Sequence record: MN481366.1
Strand: one strand, 5' to 3'
From: Escherichia phage vB_EcoP_PHB20
Length of the DNA stretch: 38,552 nucleotides
Shown here: piece by piece, positions 1-6,447 of the stretch
Position numbering within the stretch: the stretch's first letter is position 1
How the letters are laid out: each line of letters begins with the position of its first letter
Program-made: the position numbers and the translations under genes
Notes under the pieces: generated by a model
Database searches by the model: none
Seen by the model: the letters and a program-made list of their open reading frames with translations, nothing else
What the model was told of the DNA's origin: nothing

Positions 1-47
1 TGAAATTAGTGATACAGGTCTAAGTATCTGATTCTAGACCATTATTC

Positions 48-70
48 TAATTCGACTCACTATAGGGAGA
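48..70 (+). promoter_or_regulatory. T7 RNAP promoter, phiOR-like (right-end promoter upstream of gene 19.5)
   Basis: taattcgactcactatagggaga matches the 23-bp T7 consensus with one mismatch at -13; +1 G at 65. Confidence 0.75.
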
Positions 71-164
71 AGCCTACCTAAAGATAACTATAAGACTTAA
101 AGTGTCCTATAAGGTAGGTTGTTATTATGATTATTAATACAACCAACATAAAGGGAGGAGACTC

Positions 165-314
165 ATGTTCCGCTTATTGTTGAACCTACTGCGGCATAGA
201 GTCACATACCGCTTTCTTATGGTACTTTGTGCTGCCCTTGGTTATGCAGCTTTTAGTGGGGACCTCAGTTCGCTGGAGTCTACCGTTTGCTCTTTACTCA
301 CTTGTATTGATTAA
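165..314 (+). CDS. 19.5: gene 19.5 protein (49 aa, small hydrophobic right-end protein)
   Basis: ATG 165 preceded by aagggaggag; translation MFRLLLNLLRHRVTYRFLMVLCAALGYAAFSGDLSSLESTVCSLLTCID, near-identical to T7 gp19.5 as recalled; below the 60-aa track cutoff. Confidence 0.8.
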   Translation: MFRLLLNLLRHRVTYRFLMVLCAALGYAAFSGDLSSLESTVCSLLTCID

Positions 315-554
315 GGTCTTACTGACCGACTGATGGCTCACCGAGGGATTCAGCGGTATGATTGCATCACACCACTTCATCCCTATAGAGTCAAGTCCTA
401 AGGTATACCCATAAAGAGCCTCTAATGGTCTATCCGTAAGGTCTATACCTAAAGATAGGCCATCCTATCAGTGGAACCTAAAGAGGGTCCTAGAGAGGGC
501 CTGAGGAGTCCCTAGAGGGTCCTTTAAAATATACCATAAAAATCTGAGTGACTA

Positions 555-704
555 TCTCACAGTTTAAGAACCCAAAGTTCCCCCCATAGGGGTCCCTAAA
601 GCCCAGCCAATCACCTTGAGTCAACTTTCAGTTGACCTTGAGGGGTCCCTAAGGGTTGGGGTTGACCCTTTGGGTGTTACCTTGAGTGTCTCTTCTTGTC
701 CCCT
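555..704. repeat. Terminal repeat homolog (single copy in window; physical genome end / concatemer junction)
   Basis: tctcacag...gtgtctcttcttgtcccct aligns to the 160-bp T7 direct terminal repeat; right-end sequence lies upstream and left-end sequence downstream. Confidence 0.7.
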
Positions 705-711
705 ATCTGTT
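705..711 (+). promoter_or_regulatory. ATCTGTT element (T7 RNAP class II pause/termination signal, CJ-like) at the repeat boundary
   Basis: atctgtt directly after the terminal repeat, same relative position as the T7 concatemer-junction site. Confidence 0.5.
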
Positions 712-932
712 CACCCTCCTAAAGTCACCTCCTAAAGTCACCTCCTAAAGTCACCTCCTAAAGTCACCTCCTAAAGTCACCTCCTAAAGTCACCTCCTAA
801 AGTCACCTCCTAAAGTCACCTCCTAAAGTCACCTCCTAAAGTCACCTCCTAAAGTCACCTCCTAAAGTCACCTCCTAAAGTCACCTCCTAAAGTCACCTC
901 CTAAAGTCACCTCCTAAAGTCACCTCCTAAAG
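711..932. repeat. Tandem array of 13-bp unit TCACCTCCTAAAG (one 14-bp variant then 16 perfect copies)
   Basis: Perfect copies start at 725 and recur every 13 bp to 932; first unit tcaccctcctaaag at 711-724; no spacers. Confidence 0.95.
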
Positions 933-1094
933 CCATTCCTACCGTCTACAGCCTAAAGACCACACTTAAAGACCCATTCAGTCAATCCCTATCTTAAAGT
1001 TTCCCAAAGACCAGACCCAAAGACCATACCCAAAGCTGCCCCGTTGTTACTTATAAAGAGATCACTTTAATCATTATCTTTAATCACTCCCATT

Positions 1095-1117
1095 TAATAT
1101 GACTCACTATAGAGAGA
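1095..1117 (+). promoter_or_regulatory. T7 RNAP promoter, phiOL-like (left-end promoter, off-consensus)
   Basis: taatatgactcactatagagaga; +1 G at 1112; mismatches at -12 and +2. Confidence 0.6.
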
Positions 1118-1172
1118 TTCTACTTAAAGAGGGCCAAAGAGAGAGATTAATCAAAATAATCTTAAAAGAGTG

Positions 1173-1201
1173 TTGACTTAAAGAGTACTAGGGGATATTA
1201 T
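1173..1201 (+). promoter_or_regulatory. Host sigma70 early promoter A1
   Basis: -35 ttgact at 1173-1178, -10 gatatt/tattat near 1194-1201; aligns to the T7 A1 region. Confidence 0.7.
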
Positions 1202-1300
1202 TCATCTCGTCAACGGGACAACGGCCTAAAAGCCACTCCCTGAGATACCGGGGTCAACCGGATAAGTAGACAGCCTGATAAGTCATACGAAAAACAGGCA

Positions 1301-1330
1301 TTGACAACACGAAGTAACATGCAGTAAGAT
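1301..1330 (+). promoter_or_regulatory. Host sigma70 early promoter A2
   Basis: -35 ttgaca 1301-1306, 18-bp spacer, -10 taagat 1325-1330. Confidence 0.75.
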
Positions 1331-1407
1331 ACACAGCGTCAACACGGTAGCACGGTGTCTTCTAGGTGACTTAAGCGCACCACGGCACACAAGGTGAAAC
1401 AAAACGG

Positions 1408-1436
1408 TTGACAACATGCAGTAAACACGGTACGAT
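1408..1436 (+). promoter_or_regulatory. Host sigma70 early promoter A3
   Basis: -35 ttgaca 1408-1413, 17-bp spacer, -10 tacgat 1431-1436. Confidence 0.75.
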
Positions 1437-1554
1437 GTACCACAAGCAGTAAGGGTGTAGGGATAGGAACCGAGAAACCTGCCCGTGACCCGCCAAGGAT
1501 AAGGCACTAGCCATGAGTCGAATTCGGTCACTCATCGCATAAAAGAATAACAGG

Positions 1555-1583
1555 TTGACAGCCTCCTTTAAAAGCTGTAAGAT
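1555..1583 (+). promoter_or_regulatory. Additional sigma70-like early promoter inside a ~150-bp segment absent from T7 at this position
   Basis: -35 ttgaca 1555-1560, exact 17-bp spacer, -10 taagat 1578-1583; flanks partly duplicate the A3 -10 region (gta[c/a]gatgtaccac). Confidence 0.55.
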
Positions 1584-1704
1584 GTACCACGAAATGACGG
1601 AACAGTGAGTCACCACACTGAAAGGTGATGCGGTCTAACGAAACCTGACCAAAGATGATCTTTAACAATCTGGTAAACGGCTCTTGAGTGTACACACGTA
1701 GCAG

Positions 1705-1740
1705 ATAACTCAAGGGTATCGCAAGGTGCCCTTTATGATA
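1705..1740 (+). promoter_or_regulatory. RNase III processing hairpin R0.3
   Basis: ataactcaagggtatcgcaaggtgccctttatgat, the T7-type actcaagg...ggcc hairpin just upstream of gene 0.3. Confidence 0.6.
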
Positions 1741-1770
1741 TCCACTAACAACACTATGAGGTAACACACA

Positions 1771-2133
1771 ATGGCTATGTCTAACATGACTTACAACAAC
1801 GTTTTCGATCACGCTTACGAAATGCTGAAAGAAAACATCCGTTATGATGACATCCGTGACGCTGATGATCTGCACGATGCAGTGCATATGGCAGCTGATA
1901 ATGCCGTTCCGCACTATTACAGCGACATTTTCAGCGTAATGGCAAGCGAGGGCATTGACCTTGAGTTCGAAGACTCTGGTCTGATGCCGGACACCAAGGA
2001 CGTAATCCGTATCCTGCAAGCACGTATCTATGAGCAATTAACGATTGACCTTTGGGAAGACGCTGAAGATTTGCTGAACGAGTATCTTGAGGAAGTCGAA
2101 GAGTCTGAAGAGTACGAAGAGGACGAAGAGTAA
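1771..2133 (+). CDS. 0.3: Ocr, DNA-mimic anti-restriction protein (gp0.3)
   Basis: 120-aa [25 protein letters not shown]... with acidic C-terminus; near-identical to T7 Ocr as recalled; first gene after the A promoters. Confidence 0.95.
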
Positions 2134-2288
2134 TGACTACTAACAACGTGCAATATGGTCTGACCGCTCAAACTGTACTGTTCTATAGCGACATGGTGCG
2201 CTGTGGCTTTAACTGGGCGCTCGCAATGGAACACCTTAAGGAACTGTACGAAAACAACAAGGCAATAGCCTTGGAGTCTGCTGAGTGA
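2133..2288 (+). CDS. 0.4: gp0.4 (51 aa; FtsZ inhibitor in T7)
   Basis: ATG overlaps the 0.3 stop (taATGa); [51 protein letters not shown]; below track cutoff. Confidence 0.8.
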   Translation: MTTNNVQYGLTAQTVLFYSDMVRCGFNWALAMEHLKELYENNKAIALESAE

Positions 2289-2321
2289 TAAACTCAAGGT
2301 CGCTCCTAGCGAGTGGCCTTC
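2289..2321 (+). promoter_or_regulatory. RNase III processing hairpin R0.5
   Basis: taaactcaaggtcgctcctagcgagtggcctt imperfect hairpin. Confidence 0.55.
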
Positions 2322-2483
2322 ATGATTATCACTTTACTTACGGGAGTAATGCATATGTTCACTATCGGTCTACTAACCGCTCTGGGTCTAGCTGTAGGAG
2401 CATCCTTTGGGAAGTCTTTGGGCGTAGCTGTAGGCGCTTACTTGGTCGCTTGTATCATTACGGGAGCACTGCGCAAATGCTGA
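2322..2483 (+). CDS. 0.5: gp0.5-like small membrane protein (53 aa)
   Basis: ATG 2322; hydrophobic MIITLLTGVMHMFTIGLLTALGLAVGASFGKSLGVAVGAYLVACIITGALRKC; position matches T7 0.5. Confidence 0.6.
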   Translation: MIITLLTGVMHMFTIGLLTALGLAVGASFGKSLGVAVGAYLVACIITGALRKC

Positions 2484-2554
2484 AACACTACGTTATGCCT
2501 ATCCACACCAAGAACGGTGCTACAGTTTGCACACCTGATGGCTTCGCAATGTAA
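2477..2554 (+). CDS. 0.6: gene 0.6-like short ORF (25 aa) ending at an in-frame TAA, followed by a 19-codon coding-like continuation to 2614
   Basis: MLKHYVMPIHTKNGATVCTPDGFAM then TAA, then in-frame QRIERLKRELRTNRKLNNI and a second stop. Confidence 0.4.
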   Translation: MLKHYVMPIHTKNGATVCTPDGFAM

Positions 2555-2641
2555 CAACGAATCGAACGCCTTAAGCGTGAACTGCGCACCAATCGCAAGC
2601 TCAACAATATCTAATCACATTAACACTGGAGAATGCACAAA

Positions 2642-3721
2642 GTGAACGCTATCGACATCATGAGCGCTATCGACGCAATAAAAGCACTGCCAATCTGTGA
2701 ACTTGAGAAGCATCAAGGTATGCTCATTGATTTTCTGGTTGAGATGGTCAACAGCGAAACGTGTGACGGTGAGATCACCAAGCTGGACAAGCCGCTTGAA
2801 TTCCAAGACTGGTGGACTACCTTAAAGTGCTTGACTGCGGACGCTGGATTTACGATGCTTGGTAATGGGCACTTCTCCGCTGCATATAGCCACCTACTGC
2901 TGCCTAACAGAGTGATTAAGGTGGGCTTTAAGAAAGAGGACTCAGGCGCTGCGTATACCGCATTCTGCCGCATGTATCAGGGTCGTGCTGGTATCCCTAA
3001 CGTCTACGATGTACAGCGTCACGCTGGATGCTATACGGTGGTATTGGATGCACTGAATGATTGCGAGCGTTTCGACAACGATGAGTGTTATAAATACGCT
3101 GAGATTGCAAGCGACATCATTGACTACAAATCCAATGAGCACGATATGTTAACTGGGTGGGATGGCGAGTTCGTCGAGACTTGCAAGCTAATCCGCAAGT
3201 TCTTTGAGGGCATCGCTTCGTTCGACATGCACAGCGGGAACATTATGTTCAGTGACGATGGTACGCCTTTCATTACCGACCCTGTGTCATTCTCACAGAA
3301 GAAAGACGGTGACGCATTCAGCATTGACCCTGAGGAACTCATCAAGGAAGTCGAGGAGGTCGCACACCAGAGAGCAATCGACCGCGATAAGGAACGTAAA
3401 GCACGTCATGTGGGTCGATTGGAGGCACGTAAAGTAAAGCGCCGTAACCGTAAGGCGCGTAAAGCACACCAAGAGAAGCACAAGCGAATGGTTGCTGCGT
3501 GGCGTATGGCTGAGCGCCAAGAACGACGTAACCATGAGGTAGCTGTAGACGTACTGGGAAGAACCAATAACGCTATGCTCTGGGTTAACATGTTCGCTGG
3601 GGACTTTAAGGCTCTTGAGGAACGAATTGCGGCGCACTGGTTTCAAGCTGACCGAATGGCTATCGCTAACGGTCTTCCGCTCAACATCGACAAGCAACTT
3701 GACGCAATGCTAATGGGCTGA
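2642..3721 (+). CDS. 0.7: gp0.7 serine/threonine protein kinase, host shut-off
   Basis: Track ORF 2633..3721; GTG at 2642 gives 359 aa as in T7 and better SD spacing (ggag 11 nt upstream); high identity to T7 gp0.7 as recalled. Confidence 0.9.
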
Positions 3722-3770
3722 TAGTCTTATCTTACAGGTCATCTGACTGGGGGTGGCCTGAATAGATACG
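3722..3770 (+). promoter_or_regulatory. RNase III processing site R1 upstream of gene 1
   Basis: tagtcttatcttacaggtcatctgactgggggtggcctgaatag hairpin, as before T7 gene 1. Confidence 0.5.
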
Positions 3771-3795
3771 ATTTACTAACTGGAAGAGGCACTAA

Positions 3796-6447
3796 ATGAA
3801 CACAATTAACATCGCTAAGAACGACTTCTCTGACATCGAACTGGCTGCTATCCCGTTCAACACTCTGGCTGACCATTACGGTGAGCGTTTGGCTCGCGAA
3901 CAGTTGGCCCTTGAGCATGAGTCTTACGAGATGGGTGAAGCACGCTTCTGCAAGATGTTTGAGCGTCAACTTAAAGCTGGTGAGGTTGCGGATAACGCTG
4001 CCGCTAAGCCTCTCATTACTACCCTGCTCCCTAAGATGATTGCGCGCATCAACGACTGGTTTGAGGAAGTGAAAGCTAAGCGCGGCAAGCGCCCGACAGC
4101 CTTCCAGTTCCTGCAAGAAATCAAGCCGGAAGCTGTAGCGTACATCACCATTAAGACCACTCTGGCTTGCCTAACTAGCGCAGACAATACAACCGTTCAG
4201 GCTGTAGCAAGCGCAATCGGTCGGGCCATTGAGGATGAGTCGCGCTTCGGTCGCATCCGTGACCTTGAAGCTAAGCACTTCAAGAAAAACGTTGAGGAAC
4301 AACTAAACAAGCGCGTAGGGCACGTCTACAAGAAAGCATTCATGCAGGTTGTCGAAGCTGACATGCTCTCTAAGGGTCTGATGGGTGGCGAGGCGTGGTC
4401 TTCGTGGCATAAGGAAGACTCAATTCACGTTGGGGTGCGCTGCATTGAGATGCTCATTGAGTCAACCGGAATGGTTAGCTTACATCGTCAAAACGCTGGC
4501 GTAGTGGGGCAAGACTCTGAGACTATCGAACTCGCGCCGGAATACGCTGAGGCTATCGCTACTCGCGCTGGGGCACTAGCGGGCATTTCCCCAATGTTCC
4601 AGCCTTGCGTAGTCCCTCCTAAGCCTTGGACTGGCATTACTGGTGGTGGCTATTGGGCTAACGGTCGCCGTCCTCTGGCGCTGGTACGCACTCATTTTAA
4701 GAAAGCACTGATGCGCTACGAAGATGTTTACATGCCTGAGGTGTACAAGGCGATTAACATTGCGCAAAACACCGCATGGAAAATCAACAAGAAAGTCCTA
4801 GCGGTCGCCAACGTAATCACCAAGTGGAAGCACTGCCCTGTAGAGGACATCCCAGCGATTGAGCGTGAAGAACTCCCGATGAAACCGGAAGACATCGACA
4901 CGAATCCTGAGGCACTCACCGCGTGGAAACGTGCTGCTGCCGCTGTGTACCGTAAGGACAAGGCTCGCAAGTCTCGCCGTATCAGCCTTGAGTTCATGCT
5001 TGAGCAAGCCAACAAGTTCGCTAACCATGAGGCCATCTGGTTCCCTTACAACATGGACTGGCGCGGTCGTGTTTACGCGGTGTCAATGTTCAACCCGCAA
5101 GGTAACGACATGACCAAGGGACTGCTGACGCTGGCTAAAGGTAAACCAATCGGTAAAGAGGGTTACTACTGGCTGAAAATCCACGGTGCAAACTGTGCGG
5201 GTGTCGATAAGGTTCCGTTCCCGGAGCGCATCAAGTTCATTGAGGACAACCACGAGAACATCATGGCTTGCGCTAAGTCTCCACTGGAGAACACTTGGTG
5301 GGCTGAGCAGGATTCACCATTCTGCTTCCTCGCGTTCTGCTTTGAGTACGCTGGGGTACAGCACCACGGCCTGAGCTACAACTGCTCGCTGCCTCTGGCG
5401 TTCGATGGGTCTTGCTCTGGTATTCAACACTTCTCCGCGATGCTCCGCGATGAGGTGGGTGGTCTTGCTGTTAACCTACTGCCTAGTGAAACCGTTCAGG
5501 ACATCTACGGGATTGTTGCCAAGAAAGTCAACGTGATTCTGCAAGAAGACGTAATCAACGGGACCGACAACGAAGTAGTTACCGTGACTGATGAGAACAC
5601 TGGCGAAATCTCTGAGAAAGTTAAGCTGGGTACTAAGGCACTGGCTGGTCAATGGCTGGCTTACGGTGTAACTCGTAGCGTGACTAAGCGTTCAGTCATG
5701 ACGCTGGCTTACGGGTCCAAAGAGTTCGGCTTCCGTCAACAAGTGCTGGAAGATACCATTCAGCCAGCTATCGATTCCGGCAAGGGTCTGATGTTTACTC
5801 AGCCGAATCAGGCTGCTGGGTACATGGCTAAGCTGATTTGGGAAGCTGTAAGTGTGACTGTGGTGGCTGCGGTTGAAGCGATGAACTGGCTTAAGTCTGC
5901 TGCTAAACTTCTGGCTGCTGAGGTCAAAGATAAGAAGACTGGAGAGATTCTTCGCAAGCGTTGCGCTGTGCATTGGGTGACTCCTGATGGCTTCCCTGTG
6001 TGGCAGGAATACAAGAAGCCCATCCAGACTCGCTTGAACCTGATTTTCCTCGGTCAGTTCCGTCTACAGCCTACCATTAACACAAACAAGGATAGTGAGA
6101 TTGACACACACAAACAGGAGTCCGGTATCGCTCCTAACTTTGTGCATAGCCAAGATGGTAGCCACCTGCGTAAGACTGTAGCGTGGGCGCATGAGAAGTA
6201 CGGAATCGAATCGTTTGCACTGATTCACGACTCCTTCGGGACCATTCCGGCTGACGCTGCCAACCTGTTCAAAGCTGTACGTGAAACTATGGTTGACACC
6301 TATGAGTCTTGCGATGTACTGGCTGACTTCTACGACCAGTTCGCTGACCAGTTGCACGAGTCTCAATTGGACAAAATGCCAGCACTTCCGGCTAAAGGTA
6401 ACTTGAATCTCCAAGACATCCTTAAGTCAGACTTCGCGTTTGCGTAA
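3796..6447 (+). CDS. 1: T7-type single-subunit DNA-dependent RNA polymerase (gp1)
   Basis: 883-aa ORF MNTINIAKNDFSDIELAAIPFNTLADHYGERLAREQ...; same length as and near-identical to T7 RNAP as recalled; consistent with T7-specificity promoters throughout. Confidence 0.98.
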   Translation: MNTINIAKNDFSDIELAAIPFNTLADHYGERLAREQLALEHESYEMGEARFCKMFERQLKAGEVADNAAAKPLITTLLPKMIARINDWFEEVKAKRGKRPTAFQFLQEIKPEAVAYITIKTTLACLTSADNTTVQAVASAIGRAIEDESRFGRIRDLEAKHFKKNVEEQLNKRVGHVYKKAFMQVVEADMLSKGLMGGEAWSSWHKEDSIHVGVRCIEMLIESTGMVSLHRQNAGVVGQDSETIELAPEYAEAIATRAGALAGISPMFQPCVVPPKPWTGITGGGYWANGRRPLALVRTHFKKALMRYEDVYMPEVYKAINIAQNTAWKINKKVLAVANVITKWKHCPVEDIPAIEREELPMKPEDIDTNPEALTAWKRAAAAVYRKDKARKSRRISLEFMLEQANKFANHEAIWFPYNMDWRGRVYAVSMFNPQGNDMTKGLLTLAKGKPIGKEGYYWLKIHGANCAGVDKVPFPERIKFIEDNHENIMACAKSPLENTWWAEQDSPFCFLAFCFEYAGVQHHGLSYNCSLPLAFDGSCSGIQHFSAMLRDEVGGLAVNLLPSETVQDIYGIVAKKVNVILQEDVINGTDNEVVTVTDENTGEISEKVKLGTKALAGQWLAYGVTRSVTKRSVMTLAYGSKEFGFRQQVLEDTIQPAIDSGKGLMFTQPNQAAGYMAKLIWEAVSVTVVAAVEAMNWLKSAAKLLAAEVKDKKTGEILRKRCAVHWVTPDGFPVWQEYKKPIQTRLNLIFLGQFRLQPTINTNKDSEIDTHKQESGIAPNFVHSQDGSHLRKTVAWAHEKYGIESFALIHDSFGTIPADAANLFKAVRETMVDTYESCDVLADFYDQFADQLHESQLDKMPALPAKGNLNLQDILKSDFAFA

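Follow-up and report, generated by a model that had tools for sequence, protein, structure and literature searches.

A conserved early-leader RNA fold and a probable fourth early promoter form a candidate portable cassette downstream of A3 in a T7-like coliphage

Escherichia phage vB_EcoP_PHB20 (MN481366.1; the whole 38,552-nucleotide stretch analysed is referred to below as the window) carries an extra segment of 147 bp directly after the early promoter A3. With a probability of roughly 0.6, this segment is a portable early-leader cassette made of two separable parts, an RNA fold and a fourth early promoter. The first part (1453–1538) would make up the 5'-most ~95 nt of the A3 transcript and be contained in the A1 and A2 transcripts as well, its RNA being predicted to adopt three hairpins held together by a five-pair loop-loop contact. 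The second part (1539–1590) is a putative strong sigma70 promoter consisting of an A-rich stretch, TTGACA, a 17-bp spacer, TAAGAT and a GTACCAC discriminator, from which transcription would start at 1591. Tentatively, and at somewhat under even odds, the fold at 1453–1538 is proposed to represent a previously undescribed class of phage early-leader RNA, occurring in at least six genera of Autographiviridae coliphages, exchanged as a cassette and acting, within the first minutes after infection, on a host machine, be it elongating RNA polymerase, Rho or an RNA-binding protein.

Positions 1100–1800 of the window are 100% identical to vB_EcoP_IME390 (MH779619, Teseptimavirus) at an offset of 855 nt, and the MH779619 record annotates only CDSs across the early-promoter region. 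When the window was aligned with T7, T3, phiSG-JL2 and BA14, the extra segment was found in the window and in BA14 and was absent from the other three. The annotated A3 start of T7 (T7 position 750) corresponds to A1444 of the window, so the segment occupies 1444–1590 on the + strand, beginning at +1 of A3 and ending at -1 of the fourth promoter. The initial annotation had proposed an insertion of about 150 bp relative to T7 at 1445–1603, directly after A3; the alignment to T7, which lacks the segment, confirms an indel of 147 bp at this place and shows the earlier coordinates to be accurate to within a few bases. The term insertion holds as far as an indel is meant, and its direction does not stand: a gain here and a deletion in T7/T3 are not distinguishable, since the junctions fall in a repeat.

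Promoter A3 itself (TTGACA-17-TACGAT, 1408–1436, + strand; predicted start A1444 by homology with T7 A3) contributes the left copy of this 10-bp direct repeat, GATGTACCAC (1434–1443, + strand), which covers the 3' half of the A3 -10 and the discriminator to -1. The right copy (1581–1590, + strand) closes the segment, and the geometry of T7 A3 places the predicted start of the fourth promoter at G1591 (or A1592). It had been stated earlier that the downstream flank repeats the A3 -10 region, and the -10 and discriminator of A3 do recur at the right end of the segment. Both copies sit in a 38-nt promoter-core repeat (1406–1443 versus 1553–1590; 76% identical). The partial duplication of A3 suggested on these grounds is not borne out, as the repeat is limited to the core; the other ~110 nt are unrelated to the A1–A2 or A2–A3 spacers and belong to a distinct cassette common to Berlin-, Kayfuna- and Przondoviruses. 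The first transcribed bases after A3 (ACAAGCAGTAAG, 1442–1453) recur in the spacer and -10 of A2 (1317–1328) and in the A3 spacer (1414–1425) as ACATGCAGTAAG/A, and AAGCAGTA is also found after the PGT2 and phiKT promoters. This recurrence suggests a common initial transcribed sequence or an ancient promoter junction.

The fourth promoter (1555–1583, + strand) comprises the -35 hexamer TTGACA (1555–1560), a 17-bp spacer and the -10 hexamer TAAGAT (1578–1583). It agrees with the consensus at 10 of 12 positions, the -35 being perfect, and its hexamers are identical to those of A2; the promoter scan thereby upholds the near-consensus sigma70 promoter with A2 hexamers that had been described at 1555–1583. 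The same consensus scan of the + strand returned A1 (1173–1201), A2 (1301–1330, TTGACA-18-TAAGAT) and A3 (1408–1436). Nine matches to TTGAC-N17-19-TANNNT are present genome-wide, four of these within 411 bp on the + strand; a loose promoter scan of positions 1–4000 gave no enrichment over shuffles (5 found, 5.1 expected). Upstream of the -35 lies an A-rich stretch, ATAAAAGAATAACAGG (1539–1554, + strand), which is near-invariant in the alignment, single-stranded in the RNA model and apparently UP-element-like.

The fourth promoter is located as A-type promoters are, in the first ~850 bp and ahead of both gene 0.3 and the RNase III site R0.3; in MH779619 coordinates its -35 is at position 700 and gene 0.3 starts at 916. 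The gene 0.3 product, an Ocr homologue encoded at MH779619 916–1278 (window ~1771–2133), is labelled 'protein kinase' in that record and 'ocr-like anti-restriction' in the RefSeq copy. At the other side of the early promoters, the window carries a perfect tandem array (715–932) of 16.8 copies of the 13-nt CCTCCTAAAGTCA, 100% identical to one another; the array is preceded by the terminal-repeat region and followed by the phage promoter that lies before A1.

The fourth promoter is conserved in every carrier of the window-type cassette (16 aligned; 31 distinct phage names), with an invariant -35 and 17-bp spacing and a -10 of TAAGAT, TAAGCT or TAATAT. In Teseptimavirus PDP351P2 just two early promoters are left, namely A1 and a hybrid that joins A2-upstream sequence to the fourth-promoter core at AACAGG/TTGACA. 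Since this phage keeps the core as one of two early promoters, the core can be argued to work, and the fourth promoter is very probably active; the initial annotation had suggested that it could change early-gene dosage or bind a host factor. At PDP351P2 587–760, an apparent deletion between AACAGG..TTGACA microhomologies has taken out the A2 core, A3 and the RNA fold. A fourth early promoter has a precedent: the BA14 record (EU734171) annotates four 'host RNAP promoter' features, the fourth of which (834–870) is the homologue of 1555–1583, and the promoter is for this reason known and unremarkable. The literature search returned no description of the fourth promoter or of the RNA fold and no transcript data.

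The three hairpins upstream of this promoter were first predicted from the minimum-free-energy fold of the window sequence alone. Hairpin A (1453–1491, + strand) consists of helix 1 (GGG 1453–1455 with CCC 1489–1491), a 4x4 internal loop and helix 2 (1460–1462 and 1464–1467 with 1478–1484), which is closed by the 10-nt loop AACCGAGAAA at 1468–1477. It is followed by the small hairpin 3 (1492–1505, + strand), GCC-AAGGAUAA-GGC, with GGA in its loop, and by hairpin B (1510–1538, + strand), in which 1513–1518 pair with 1530–1535 and 1520–1521 with 1528–1529 around the loop AUUCGG (1522–1527). Loops A and B are joined by a kissing contact between CCGAG (1470–1474) and UUCGG (1523–1527). Every homologue folded alone gives the same three-hairpin shape, with modest folding z-scores of -1.2 to -2.8. 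In the window the z-score is -2.05 for the + strand versus -1.04 for the minus strand, and G-U is invariant at two positions of the window-type fold; both features point to an RNA of the transcribed sense.

Hairpin B had been reported in the initial annotation as an EcoRI-centred palindrome. The inverted repeat at 1513–1535 (ATGAGT...ACTCAT with CGAATTCG in the centre) is present; its arms are too short for significance alone, it was not listed in a repeat search at seed 7, and it draws its support from conservation and covariation in relatives. As a DNA site the palindrome fares worse: G-U pairs, the series A-U, G-U, G-C at one position and the pairing of its loop with another loop make a + strand RNA hairpin the better reading. 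The EcoRI site (1520–1525), replaced by GAATTT in CHX131, is to judge from these sequences a by-product of hairpin B. The genome contains two EcoRI sites (1520–1525 and 2798–2803) in 38.5 kb versus 8.5 ± 2.9 expected from shuffles, and the former presumably persists because it falls within the upper stem and the loop of hairpin B and takes part in the loop-loop contact.

RNAalifold applied to 16 distinct window-type copies returned the same structure with 33 pairs, all 527 cells being paired. Three of these pairs are compensatory (G-C to U-A; A-U, G-U, G-C; C-G to U-A). Fifteen unpaired columns vary freely, and every change in a paired column preserves pairing. The closing pair of hairpin B is A-U in six sequences, G-U in six and G-C in four, with no broken cell. 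Slid controls contained no compensatory changes, and none of 500 shuffles reached the observed score. For the window-type form overall, all 607 cells of the 38 pairs are paired, and three of these pairs are compensatory. The slid and shuffle controls ignore relatedness, so more distant copies were sought; the shuffle result is thus to be read as uncorrected for kinship among ~20 distinct sequences in two forms.

A diverged copy that BLAST had missed in Berlinvirus Carena was revealed by aligning BA14 with Carena. Used as a query, it led to P1338 (unclassified, with T7-like A1–A3), to PGT2 and phiKT (Ermolevavirus) and to Minorna (Drulisvirus). A sigma70-like promoter precedes each of the diverged copies, all of which are in non-coding early leaders. 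In the window the fold begins 10 nt past the predicted A3 start, and P1338, Carena, PGT2 and Minorna show the same arrangement. The diverged form comprises 28 pairs, six of them compensatory (5 sequences). Hairpin A, considered across both forms (15 distinct sequences), has compensatory changes in three of ten pairs and 99.3% of cells paired, and these changes fall in helices predicted before the diverged sequences were seen. Hairpin B of the diverged form has a different sequence and is still a hairpin, with three compensatory pairs among the 5 copies, while in hairpin 3 GCU-A(N)GGA(N)-AGC replaces GCC/GGC with one compensatory pair (U-A to C-G).

The loop-loop contact is fully paired in 13 of 13 phages checked, and two of its five positions covary. 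Its variants are CCGAG/UUCGG, CUGCG/UGCAG in the diverged form and CCGCG/UGCGG in Minorna, with one G-U arising from the GAATTT of CHX131. Hairpin B appears to have been replaced jointly with loop A because the two loops pair with each other. In total, compensatory changes occur at ten base pairs, two of them in the loop-loop contact (20 distinct sequences). Given the low sequence diversity, each compensatory change may be a single event, and template-switch repair in quasi-palindromes can yield seemingly compensatory changes without selection. Taken with these qualifications, the covariation indicates that the fold is probably a functional RNA.

The window-type cassette was found in 44 records with 31 distinct phage names from a collection of 50,697 phage records, whereas the surrounding early region was matched by 465 records. 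Its carriers belong to Teseptimavirus, Berlinvirus, Kayfunavirus and, in one case, Przondovirus; together with the diverged form, the fold is conserved in six phage genera. In other genera, the cassette is 90.5–96.6% identical to the window, against 57–68% for the 290 nt upstream and 63–82% for the 180 nt downstream. Such high identity between genera could stem from recent horizontal spread instead of constraint. A covariance model of hairpin A detected a single copy in each carrier, and no copy in T7, T3, phiSG-JL2, K1F, Berlin, HK022, mEp460 or Eeyore. Most T7-like phages are devoid of the cassette, which is therefore dispensable.

The fold and the promoter occur in different combinations. 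P1338 has the fold directly after A3, with no match to TTGAC[ACGT]-16..18-TANNNT downstream in the stretch scanned; in Carena the fold is accompanied by a different promoter, which is T3-like; PDP351P2 retains the fourth-promoter core and has no fold. Judging by these genomes, the fold and the promoter are separable parts. Within Kayfunavirus, a single promoter in K1F occupies the place of promoter-cassette-promoter in ST31. All the junctions fall in repeated promoter sequence, which makes gain and loss indistinguishable in a given case; both evidently occur, as K1F versus ST31 and the PDP351P2 hybrid suggest.

Another cassette adjoins the fold in Minorna (locus L035, 1170–1225) and phiKT (locus L034, ~1600–1660). 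It is 88–91% identical over 42–44 nt to lambdoid phages, namely mEp460_4F5 (L040, 2001–2042) and Eeyore (L041, 2001–2044), where the counterpart lies just downstream of a cI-like repressor gene, in the nut/put position of the PL leader. This neighbouring cassette also matches T5-like Providencia phages, has stem-forming ends in both contexts and gave no match in Rfam.

Searches for known elements in the extra segment returned little. Rfam 15 contained nothing overlapping the element at E<=10 for the window or at E<=1 for eight carrier loci, ARAGORN detected no tRNA or tmRNA genes at 1000–2000, and the cassette has no + strand ORF of at least 20 aa. Minus-strand ORFs were rejected because they extend into unconserved flanks, and a 9-codon (A/G)TG...TAA micro-ORF inside hairpin B was rejected because its stop is lost in EG1. 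As regards a host origin, blastn against 5,426 E. coli genomes gave no match, nor did a pattern search of the genomes of 185,579 bacterial or archaeal species. A metagenome scan returned eight loci, three of which (L026–L028) were chance matches, and added no new diversity. A miniature transposable element was rejected on the grounds that the ends are direct and not inverted, the flanking repeat is the promoter core and there is one copy per genome. No intrinsic terminator was detected after the fold.

The simplest competing explanation would be that the promoter alone matters and that the ~110 nt upstream of it are a hitch-hiking spacer recently spread between genera, in which hairpins are incidental. 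A cassette 90–97% identical amid diverged flanks is what recent transfer predicts, and neither the modest z-scores nor the inverted repeat, which is not significant alone, would require more. However, the diverged form in Carena, P1338, PGT2, phiKT and Minorna keeps the shape and the loop contact through compensatory changes, changes in paired columns always preserve pairing while the 15 unpaired columns vary, and in P1338 the scanned stretch downstream of the fold contains no promoter-like match. An incidental spacer is on this evidence distinctly improbable. Still more improbable, to the point that we give it hardly any weight, is that the palindrome and a dyad in the promoter spacer are DNA-level sites for a host or phage protein regulating the fourth promoter. 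There are inverted repeats at about -67 and within the promoter spacer, and the spacer dyad ACAGC/GCTGT becomes ACAGT/ACTGT in Berlin-type copies. Yet the G-U pairs (two invariant, and 6 of 16 at the closing pair of hairpin B) would count as mismatches if the dyad acted as DNA or if the opposite strand were the one folded, and covariation of the hairpin B loop with a loop 50 nt away is not predicted by dyad binding. CRP and LexA sites in the dyads were also rejected by eye, as their spacing does not fit the consensus.

Under another reading, the fold would bind or sequester a host RNA-binding protein such as CsrA. Hairpin 3, with its short covarying stem, would present its A(N)GGA(N) loop on a leader RNA that is highly abundant early in infection, and the ACGGAU hexaloop of PGT2 and P1338 matches the classical CsrA/RsmE site. 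The PGT2, phiKT and Minorna leaders are also GGA-rich and nearly free of TCC. On the other hand, the window element has only 3 GGA in 97 nt, a number reached by 19% of windows of the same size, and the rest of its leader is GGA-poor; of the three, two are partly sequestered in helix 2, and only hairpin 3 has a GGA in a loop. The phage would gain no obvious benefit, and the literature search turned up nothing on phage CsrA sponges, so that a CsrA decoy seems quite unlikely. The Ermolevavirus and Drulisvirus leaders (L033 1380–1640, L034 1400–1700, L035 1000–1260) have 46–61 GGA/kb on the transcribed strand and 0–1 TCC, against a background of 16–23/kb; this GGA density is similar to that of the CsrA sponges CsrB and CsrC.

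The fold could instead be a put-like processive antiterminator or anti-pausing RNA that binds its own host polymerase and carries it through the terminators and pauses of the early region. Like putL of HK022, it immediately follows a strong early sigma70 promoter and precedes all the early genes (PMC9378689). Its structure is compact and includes a tertiary contact, and the cassette next to it in phiKT and Minorna shares ~90% identity over 44 nt with the PL leader of the lambdoid phages mEp460 and Eeyore. Against this, putL, located in HK022 by the residues given in PMC9378689 and compared with the cassette by direct reading of both sequences, has no sequence similarity to it. Moreover, three hairpins with kissing loops are set against two stems with a triplex, and a boxA-type element is already present downstream in the leader. 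A put-like RNA in this strict sense is thus considered unlikely. We prefer a reading in which the fold would be a cis-acting module that aids processive transcription of the long untranslated leader by the host polymerase, for three reasons: its 5' position in a long leader made by that polymerase, its compact tertiary structure and the neighbouring cassette of phiKT and Minorna. This role is a guess and a rather doubtful one; the fold might act either on the elongating polymerase or by blocking the access of Rho and RNases.

In the proposed course of infection, the left genome end would enter and host RNA polymerase would load at four tandem promoters and not three. All four transcripts would then pass through a common leader of hairpin and boxA before reaching gene 0.3. 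The leader hairpin (1609–1629, + strand) is outside the cassette, would be transcribed from all four promoters and has an invariant loop, ACACUGAAA, with a covarying stem; the stem varies freely among T7, T3, BA14, K1F, ST31 and PDP351P2. It is followed by the boxA-like TGATCTTTAACAA (1656–1668, + strand), represented in relatives by TGCTCTTTAACAA or CGCTCTTTAACAA; the element is comparable to rrn boxA. The boxA-like GCTCTTTAACAAT is invariant in the same six phages, and the window alone has GATC, not GCTC (C to A, 1658). Recombination between the repeated promoter cores would allow the cassette to be gained, lost and re-assorted.

Taken alone, the fourth promoter is of little significance. 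The number of strong early promoters in T7-like phages ranges from two to four by way of core recombination, and the public annotation of most of these genomes leaves the promoters out. The fold is the more useful lead, being a well-supported structured RNA at the very start of the early transcript in relatives within the well-studied T7 group. Since it is small, dispensable in some phages and present in the easily grown BA14, IME390 and ST31, it is simple to approach experimentally, and its study could expose new ways in which phages tune host transcription or RNA-binding proteins.

The fourth promoter resembles A1, A2 and A3 of T7 and T3 in strand and region, in the -35 TTGACA, the 17–18-bp spacer, the TAAGAT/TACGAT -10 and the GTACCAC discriminator, as well as in the A-rich upstream stretch and in the downstream leader that is transcribed. 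It differs in being an extra member, absent from T7 and T3, that arrives together with a structured RNA unit having no counterpart between A1, A2 and A3. The fourth promoter of BA14 (834–870) is homologous in sequence and place, the BA14 cassette being 94.6% identical to that of the window; it differs in the -10 (TAAGCT) and in two spacer changes, and the BA14 record annotates the promoter alone and nothing for the upstream fold.

The put RNAs of HK022 are structured RNAs of 70–90 nt placed right after a strong early sigma70 promoter, upstream of early genes (PMC9378689). As cis-acting antiterminators after PL and PR they are like the present fold in their position after an early sigma70 promoter, whereas they form two stems arranged as a V with a triplex and the fold has three hairpins with kissing loops. 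Compared with the rrn-type leader (boxB hairpin plus boxA), which is found in all early leaders of the T7 group, the cassette sits upstream of the hairpin and the boxA-like element, has no boxA itself and is accessory, being carried by a minority of phages.

Classical T7 genetics offers a parallel in early-region deletions between short direct repeats. The present indel is similar in that its boundaries lie in a 10-bp direct repeat, and the PDP351P2 junction likewise falls in the AACAGG..TTGACA microhomology. Unlike in the classical deletions, the repeats are the promoter cores themselves, so that recombination between them alters the number of promoters and swaps cassettes between genera.
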